Shown here: piece after piece, positions 1,765 through 1,975 of the stretch
Layout: each line of letters starts with the position of its first letter
How positions within the stretch are numbered: the first letter of the stretch is position 1
Origin: Octopus vulgaris
Taxonomy: Eukaryota
Direction: 5' to 3'
DNA: 64,000 nucleotides
NCBI GenBank assembly: GCA_951406725.2
Contig: OX597826.1
Location: 71,052,001-71,116,000 of the forward strand
Translations under genes and position numbers: made by a program
The notes under the pieces: generated by a model
What the model was told of the DNA's origin: nothing
Databases searched by the model: none
The model's input: the letters and a program-made list of their open reading frames with translations, nothing else

Positions 1765-1975
1765 CGCCATGTTGATTCGCTAGCCTCTGTACGCATTTTT
1801 TTCTCTCCTTGTTTCTTTCTGTGTTTCTTTTCTGTATATCTTTCTGTTGAAGAGCGTAGGCTCGAAACGTAAAAGACTTGTTTTATTTATATTCCTGAGC
1901 GCCATACTAATACAATCGTTTGTTTGTATTCCACCTGCCTTCGTCTTTTGTCTATTTTCATAAAGCATCCCGTTA
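1765..1975 (+). mobile_element. short hammerhead-carrying element in (TA)n, family H1 (Penelope pLTR/retrozyme-like)
   Basis: Near-identical copies at 15818-16028 and 28836-29018; diverged copies at 42522 and 45250 (minus). Confidence 0.8.
1839..1876 (+). ncRNA. minimal hammerhead ribozyme motif, family H1
   Basis: tcttt-CTGTTGA-a-GAGC gtag GCTC-GAAACGTA-aaaga; stems I and II pair; stem III is the palindrome ACGT. Confidence 0.7.

Follow-up and report, generated by a model that had tools for sequence, protein, structure and literature searches.

The hammerheads of Penelope-like elements are poor at cleavage, and at least one such element can insert in vitro without its hammerhead being active. 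A natural experiment on what these motifs are for is offered by a high-copy family in which the whole fold is kept, with a fixed change in the CUGA turn, and a 38-nt motif in Octopus vulgaris, in which the turn reads CUGU, raises the question of whether such a family exists: is U at position 6 (U6) a local accident or a property of the family, from which state does it derive, and would an RNA with this core still be expected to cleave? We addressed these questions from the window (the whole stretch of 64,000 nucleotides that was analysed), from contigs of public sequencing runs and from metagenomes.

The original prediction placed a minimal hammerhead layout of 38 nt at positions 1839-1876, and this was borne out by the stems, the core and a descriptor search; with position 6 left free, the descriptor found exactly copies 1 to 3 in the window and nothing (0) in 300 dinucleotide shuffles, while the motif pattern gave 3 matches in the window and 0 in 100 shuffles. 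The parts of copy 1 and the other copies of the motif are as follows:

1839-1876, plus strand: hammerhead-like motif of copy 1, called from the sequence and the free-position-6 descriptor
1839-1843 with 1872-1876: stem I of copy 1, TCTTT with AAAGA
1844 (C3), 1847 (U6) and 1848 (N7): positions in the core of copy 1, CTGTTGA
1851: extra A of copy 1, ahead of stem II
1852-1855 with 1860-1863: stem II of copy 1, GAGC with GCTC, loop GTAG
1864-1866: G12 to A14 of copy 1
1867-1870: palindrome ACGT of copy 1, including CG and U16.1
1871: A17 of copy 1, with the predicted cut after this position
15892-15929, plus strand: motif of copy 2, a 38-mer identical to that of copy 1
28883-28922, plus strand: motif of copy 3; stem I has 6 bp, and the core carries U6 and C7
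42599, plus strand: core CTGTAGA of copy 4, with U6 and A7; owing to a deletion, neither GAAACG nor the cleavage triplet remains in this copy
about 45349-45379, minus strand: decayed motif of a distant relative, in which stem II is broken and the core has U4C and A6

The arrangement is of type I, with a stem I of 5-6 bp and a stem II of 4 bp around the core. The extra nucleotide that minimal Penelope-type hammerheads (min-HHR) have between positions 9 and 10.1 is present (A1851, in agreement with the extra A first noticed before a 4-bp stem II), as is G10.1-C11.1 (G1852-C1863), and three of the four family copies have GAAA, the palindromic 15.2-16.2, U16.1 and H17, in the form GAAA CG T A. The min-HHR core CUGANGA, in contrast, is absent from all four family copies, each of which has U6. 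Four U6 copies had been reported; U6 indeed occurs in each, but only three are whole, copy 4 having retained U6 and stem II despite the loss of GAAACG and the triplet. Beside this deletion, at 42607-42618, a loop change has turned stem II of copy 4 into a perfect 12-bp palindrome. The relative reported at 45349 exists and does have A6, but it lies on the minus strand (its CCGACGA starts at 45379) and is a decayed copy. Rfam covariance models yielded no hammerhead match over 1770-1965 at E up to 10, a test that is insensitive here because it also missed the canonical-core motif at 16162-16217 (see below); over the whole window, only microsatellite noise was found among the matches listed.

The motif belongs to a short unit, about 180-210 bp long depending on the copy:

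1764-1974, plus strand: unit copy 1, pyrimidine-rich, about 210 bp, with a degenerate TA tract on one side and (TA)n at 1974-2089 on the other
15817-16026, plus strand: unit copy 2, with (TA)n on both sides
28837-29017, plus strand: unit copy 3, shorter at its 5' end
42522-42718, plus strand: unit copy 4, a diverged subfamily
45249-45457, minus strand: unit of the distant relative, about 70% like copy 1

Identity to copy 1 amounts to 97.1% for copy 2, 91.7% for copy 3 and 81.7% for copy 4, so that the earlier description as near-identical suits the 38-mer and copies 1 and 2, but not copies 3 and 4. Similarly, of the 14-27 kb originally given as spacing, the upper figure is the distance from copy 1 to copy 3 (27.0 kb), successive copies being 14.1, 13.0 and 13.7 kb apart. 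All four family copies (1839, 15892, 28883 and 42599) lie on the plus strand at intervals of 13-14 kb, which is probably due to chance; a segmental repeat was ruled out as the explanation by a masked self-BLAST, which revealed no common flanks. As the flanks are not shared, the copies represent separate insertions, and the nearly equal start point in copies 1, 2 and 4, together with the same end in copies 1 to 3, is more in keeping with a discrete short unit than with truncation at random. The tandem arrays that had been envisaged were not encountered, all 5 copies in the window being solo, with no head-to-tail units. A (TA)n or degenerate TA tract is found on both sides of 5/5 copies; such microsatellite insertion is a Neptune-type criterion, although not a diagnostic one, since Naiads have it too. 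Copy 2 and its TA tracts are bracketed by a 73-bp inverted repeat (90%; 15667-15739 and 16084-16156), as would result if the unit had inserted into a MITE-like element at its TA centre. The unit translations had no protein homologues. Taken together, the unit is likely to be the non-autonomous tail of a Penelope-like retroelement, a link that rests on architecture, since the window contains no Penelope-like open reading frame (ORF), nor did an autonomous partner carrying U6 come to light.

We then turned to sequences beyond the window. Part of the unit is contained in 20 public runs, from four organisms and nine studies, and four of the 20 were analysed, one per organism (X1, X9, X7 and X8; values below follow this order). 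The contigs aligned numbered 21,109, 2,818, 9,266 and 5,739 (38,932 in total); the alignment was made at 80% likeness, and differences were listed from 2%. At position 1847 (U6), the sole listed change was T>C, at 2.1, 0.7, 0.7 and 1.1%, these values being shares of contig depth and not copy counts, with X1 possibly the window's own sample. A6, which the original prediction had considered as a possible genomic consensus, remained below 2% (T>A) in all four runs. U6 is thus no local accident: it is fixed in contigs of four organisms. Position 7 (1848), predicted to be free to vary, was mixed in the four runs, with T>A at 12-22% and T>C at 11-16%. Apart from these two positions, 1840-1874 was without any listed change in the four runs, and at the outer end of stem I, positions 1839 and 1875 showed changes of 3-6% that break pairing.

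Among those listed, loose ends were present before 1840/1841 in 445, 75, 367 and 228 contigs, and behind 1879 in 357, 77, 335 and 268 contigs, with low agreement among their flanks (0.55-0.69, among those listed). The joining of the motif to unalike flanks of such low agreement indicates that several families have the module in common, and the loose-end contigs are included in the depth behind the position 6 shares. The loose-end consensus of X9, X7 and X8 revealed a further subfamily, with U6, G7 and U17. Depth over the motif was about 2-9 times that of the flanks in the four runs, a peak from which no copy number can be read, each depth being a sum over contigs. No head-to-tail joints were seen in the contig joints of the four runs, an absence that is weak evidence given that (TA)n separates units.

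As regards the origin of U6, we scanned metagenomes with a pattern that combined this stem II with GAAACGT and allowed any base at positions 6 and 7, and obtained 113 matches in 112 loci, of which 111 matches had A6, 1 had C6 and 1 had U6. The lone U6 and C6 examples (L070, 2466-2495, minus strand, and L012, 1420-1449, plus strand, respectively) may represent either decayed copies or variants of independent origin, and the window's own U6 family was absent among the 112 loci. In 14 of these loci (counting the 3 query loci, and counting one locus several times), Penelope-like reverse transcriptase (RT) or GIY-YIG sequence precedes the motif in the same orientation, and in 13 of the 14 it ends 92-135 nt short of it; Pfam matches were RVT_1 in L023 (E=5e-8) and GIY-YIG in L063 (E=0.002, below cut-off). 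The position of the A6 build behind Penelope-like ORFs argues that this build is a tail motif of such elements, in which A6 is the norm. U6 would most simply be a derived state, and the A6 relative in the window points in the same direction. In prokaryote genomes and viral contigs, the motif pattern gave 0 matches.

Comparison with known systems is consistent with this descent. The min-HHR of metazoan Penelope-like pseudo-LTRs, as described in the accessible part of PMC4209133, share with the window motif (i) the type I order, short stem I and extra nucleotide before stem II, (ii) G10.1-C11.1 and GAAA-CG-U-H with a palindromic helix III, and (iii) a U-rich 5' flank and copies that are dispersed and for the most part single; in Fig. 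S3 of that paper, the row for Acropora Neptune has nearly the same build. The self-complementary ACGT stem III and Penelope dimer-type layout that had been proposed for the window motif match these traits, and that paper had already described the dimer mode, the palindrome in stem III and the additional A. The differences are that A6 is found in all 56 rows of Fig. S3 (where the descriptor requires it) as opposed to U6 here, the sole core change named in the accessible text being U3-A8, and that min-HHR elements have an RT-GIY-YIG ORF, whereas the window units have none attached. The U6 motif very likely descends from Penelope-like minimal hammerheads; as it fails the CUGANGA core test, we class it as a variant and not as a min-HHR member. 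No U6 family was found in the hammerhead and Penelope literature that was searched, although the largest survey of such variants, by Lunse et al. 2017, may contain one.

A natural pyrimidine at position 6, in a core that is otherwise intact, is known from the A6C hammerhead of phage Bcep176 (PMC3088659; PMC7151607, both as far as accessible). That case is a single phage example with a closed stem III and measured activity, whereas the window family has U, is of the dimer type, and is a putative ribozyme in a high-copy animal repeat. The Anolis Poseidon element PAc resembles the present case in that it has a Penelope-type hammerhead, the cleavage of which is dispensable for insertion in vitro, and it supplies the model for the mechanism proposed below; it differs in being autonomous, its C3 and G8 are intact, and no change at position 6 is reported in the accessible part of the paper (PMC11167929). 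Non-LTR retrozymes, which are thought to depend on Penelope-like elements, are likewise short and non-coding, with units of 200-400 nt that contain a type I hammerhead (PMC7229834; bioRxiv 10.64898/2026.07.22.740005, in their accessible parts), but form tandem arrays with canonical hammerheads, whereas each window copy stands alone, has a minimal motif and is bordered by (TA)n. A Naiad end was rejected as an identity for the unit, which is unlike the Naiad 3' ends in the accessible part of PMC8557442. A 2026 repeat annotation of Octopus vulgaris records 30 recently active Penelope families, and hammerheads are not mentioned in the accessible portion of its main text.

Whether the U6 core cleaves can be approached through its predicted folding. 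A monomer is unable to close its stem III, and ACGU is self-complementary, a pairing that constitutes the dimer route of minimal hammerheads, in which, even with A6, the monomer is inactive and dimer activity is low (PMC4209133). A measured value for an A6U mutant was not found in the literature. In a saturation study, single and double changes of CUGA were all low in activity, except for the C3-G8 swap (PMC9901934, accessible part), and low activity is accordingly predicted for the U6 core. A secondary-structure model further predicts a U6-A15.1 pair which, next to G5-C15.2, covers the dimer palindrome. The pairing probability of G5-C15.2 was 0.98 for U6U7 and 0.45-0.75 with C, A or G at position 7, as against 0.01-0.10 with A6. 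In the same type of model, which is without tertiary energy, the active-type dimer lies above two monomers by 5.7 kcal/mol for U6U7 vs 0.9 for A6U7, and by only 1.3 kcal/mol for the C7 and A7 forms of U6. The off-pathway helix is no sign of design, as it arises automatically from A6U: 24 of 65 other A6 motifs gain it upon this change in silico.

The explanation that we propose, and to which we give about an even chance of being correct, is that the fold is kept by selection, with predicted cleavage that is weak and dependent on dimers and protein, or nil. The unit would be copied into (TA)n by the RT/GIY-YIG protein of an autonomous element, and U6 would derive from A6 within this lineage. Core contacts would be lost through U6, and the U6-A15.1 pair would close the off-pathway helix over the dimer palindrome; two copies would then pair via ACGU, helped by the element's protein. 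Selection would retain the hammerhead fold for protein binding or for slow, protein-assisted cleavage after A17, fast cleavage being dispensable. A bolder prediction, which we regard as tentative and rather unlikely, is that of a Penelope-like lineage with a fixed CUGU core that still cleaves after GUA, as a protein-opened dimer or via a changed metal preference, with U6-A15.1 acting as a lock and position 7 as its tuner.

Of the other explanations, a dead ribozyme survives best, although we hold it to be unlikely: a single founder A6U change would have killed cleavage and the family would have spread because insertion needs none, its conservation reflecting a few master copies. That mobility does not imply cleavage follows from the Anolis element, the hammerhead of which cleaves only with the element's protein, and the core mutants of which still insert in vitro (PMC11167929, accessible part), and the low activity of CUGA changes other than the C3-G8 swap (PMC9901934, accessible part) is in line with a killed core; the sharing of the module by families with flanks that can no longer be aligned speaks, on the other hand, against it. 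Variable sites were 4/38 in the motif vs 20/96 in the flanks (Fisher p=0.21), as a dead motif would allow, and reached 2/35 vs 22/99 (p=0.04) only for a span chosen afterwards. Nevertheless, the only common change inside the module falls on position 7, a free core position, and copies 1 and 4, which are 18% apart overall, have just two differences within the 24 nt of 1840-1863, namely N7 and a single base of loop II, even if half of the motif is gone in copy 4. Compensatory changes in stems I or II, which would speak against a dead motif, were not seen in the contig alignments. The evidence for selection on the motif that emerges from these comparisons may be called modest.

An active variant, the U6 core of which would cut after GUA as a protein-free dimer at rates resembling those of other minimal hammerheads and perhaps with an altered metal preference, appears doubtful and quite unlikely. 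G8, G12, the C3-G8 pair, A13-A15.1, U16.1 and H17 are all intact and nearly invariant in the four runs; however, minimal hammerheads with A6 are already poor cleavers as dimers (PMC4209133, accessible part), and the dimer gap given above for U6U7 is that of the commonest form. The natural A6C hammerhead, for which one or two hydrogen bonds are expected to be lost, is slow (<0.1 per min; PMC3088659) and cleaves well in Mn2+ (0.3 per min; PMC7151607; both papers in their accessible parts), which leaves some room for a pyrimidine at this position. We also discarded a substrate-only model, in which an A6 sister would cut the U6 RNA in trans, as it leaves the conservation of the enzyme strand unexplained. 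Finally, it is very improbable that the unit is the tail or a parasite of a Naiad or another (TA)n-targeting element, its hammerhead likeness being incidental or a relic, for although Naiads favour (TA)n and are without canonical hammerheads (PMC8557442, accessible part) and the window contains Naiad-like ends, the motif 11-mer is absent from both strands of the consensus file of that paper (where a match split by a line break could have escaped notice), a different motif is present in two octopus Naiad 3' ends (PMC8557442) and the hammerhead descriptor gave no match in the 300 shuffles.

Several other hammerhead-like motifs and mobile elements were observed in the window, besides two abundant SINE families with many copies:

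213-270, plus strand: complete, non-circularly permuted hammerhead layout in the order S-G-C, with a canonical core
213-217 with 235-239: stem III of this motif, CGTGT with ACACG; C17 at 218
219-223 with 254-258: stem I of this motif, CTGTC with GACAG
227-231 with 267-270: stem II of this motif, CCTTC with GGGG; GAAA at 232 and CTGATGA at 259
1530-1585, plus strand, and 43471-43509, minus strand: decayed relatives of the 213-270 motif
16162-16217, minus strand: type I hammerhead with a canonical A6 core, 4-bp stem I and long stem II, on the strand opposite to copy 2 and about 230 bp away from it; helix III ACAGCCGT, one change short of a palindrome; no Rfam match
62057-63229, minus strand: L1/Tx1-like ORF piece (zf-RVT, E=4e-8)
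30565-30930, plus strand: presumably a mariner-like transposase piece, labelled from its translation, without a Pfam match
21239-22368: pieces that we take to be R4-like, labelled from their translations, without a Pfam match

The strict S-G-C descriptor had its sole match in the window at 213-270 and 0 in 100 shuffles, and the spacing of GAAA followed by CTGATGA occurred 3 times in the window vs 0.01 expected. By eye, the consensus 3' ends of Naiad_Obim and Naiad_Ovul have the same S-G-C order, with stems I and III that are different yet paired. Such Naiad cases are labelled 'HHR_half_core' in PMC8557442, the accessible part of which states that canonical hammerheads are absent from Naiads, and type SGC has been described from metatranscriptome and database searches (PMC10085705, accessible part), in a text from which 'Naiad' and 'octopus' are absent. 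Judging from the order and pairing of these parts, Naiads may carry type-SGC hammerheads.

To return to the U6 family, for which we favour a selected fold with weak, assisted or no cleavage, its meaning depends on what the motif does. If the U6 motif cleaves, the accepted core consensus and the counts based on descriptors would be too narrow; if the prediction is true, the CUGU class would represent high-copy natural hammerheads that are wholly missed by CUGANGA descriptors. If it does not cleave, the fold would have been retained for a non-catalytic role, most likely protein binding.
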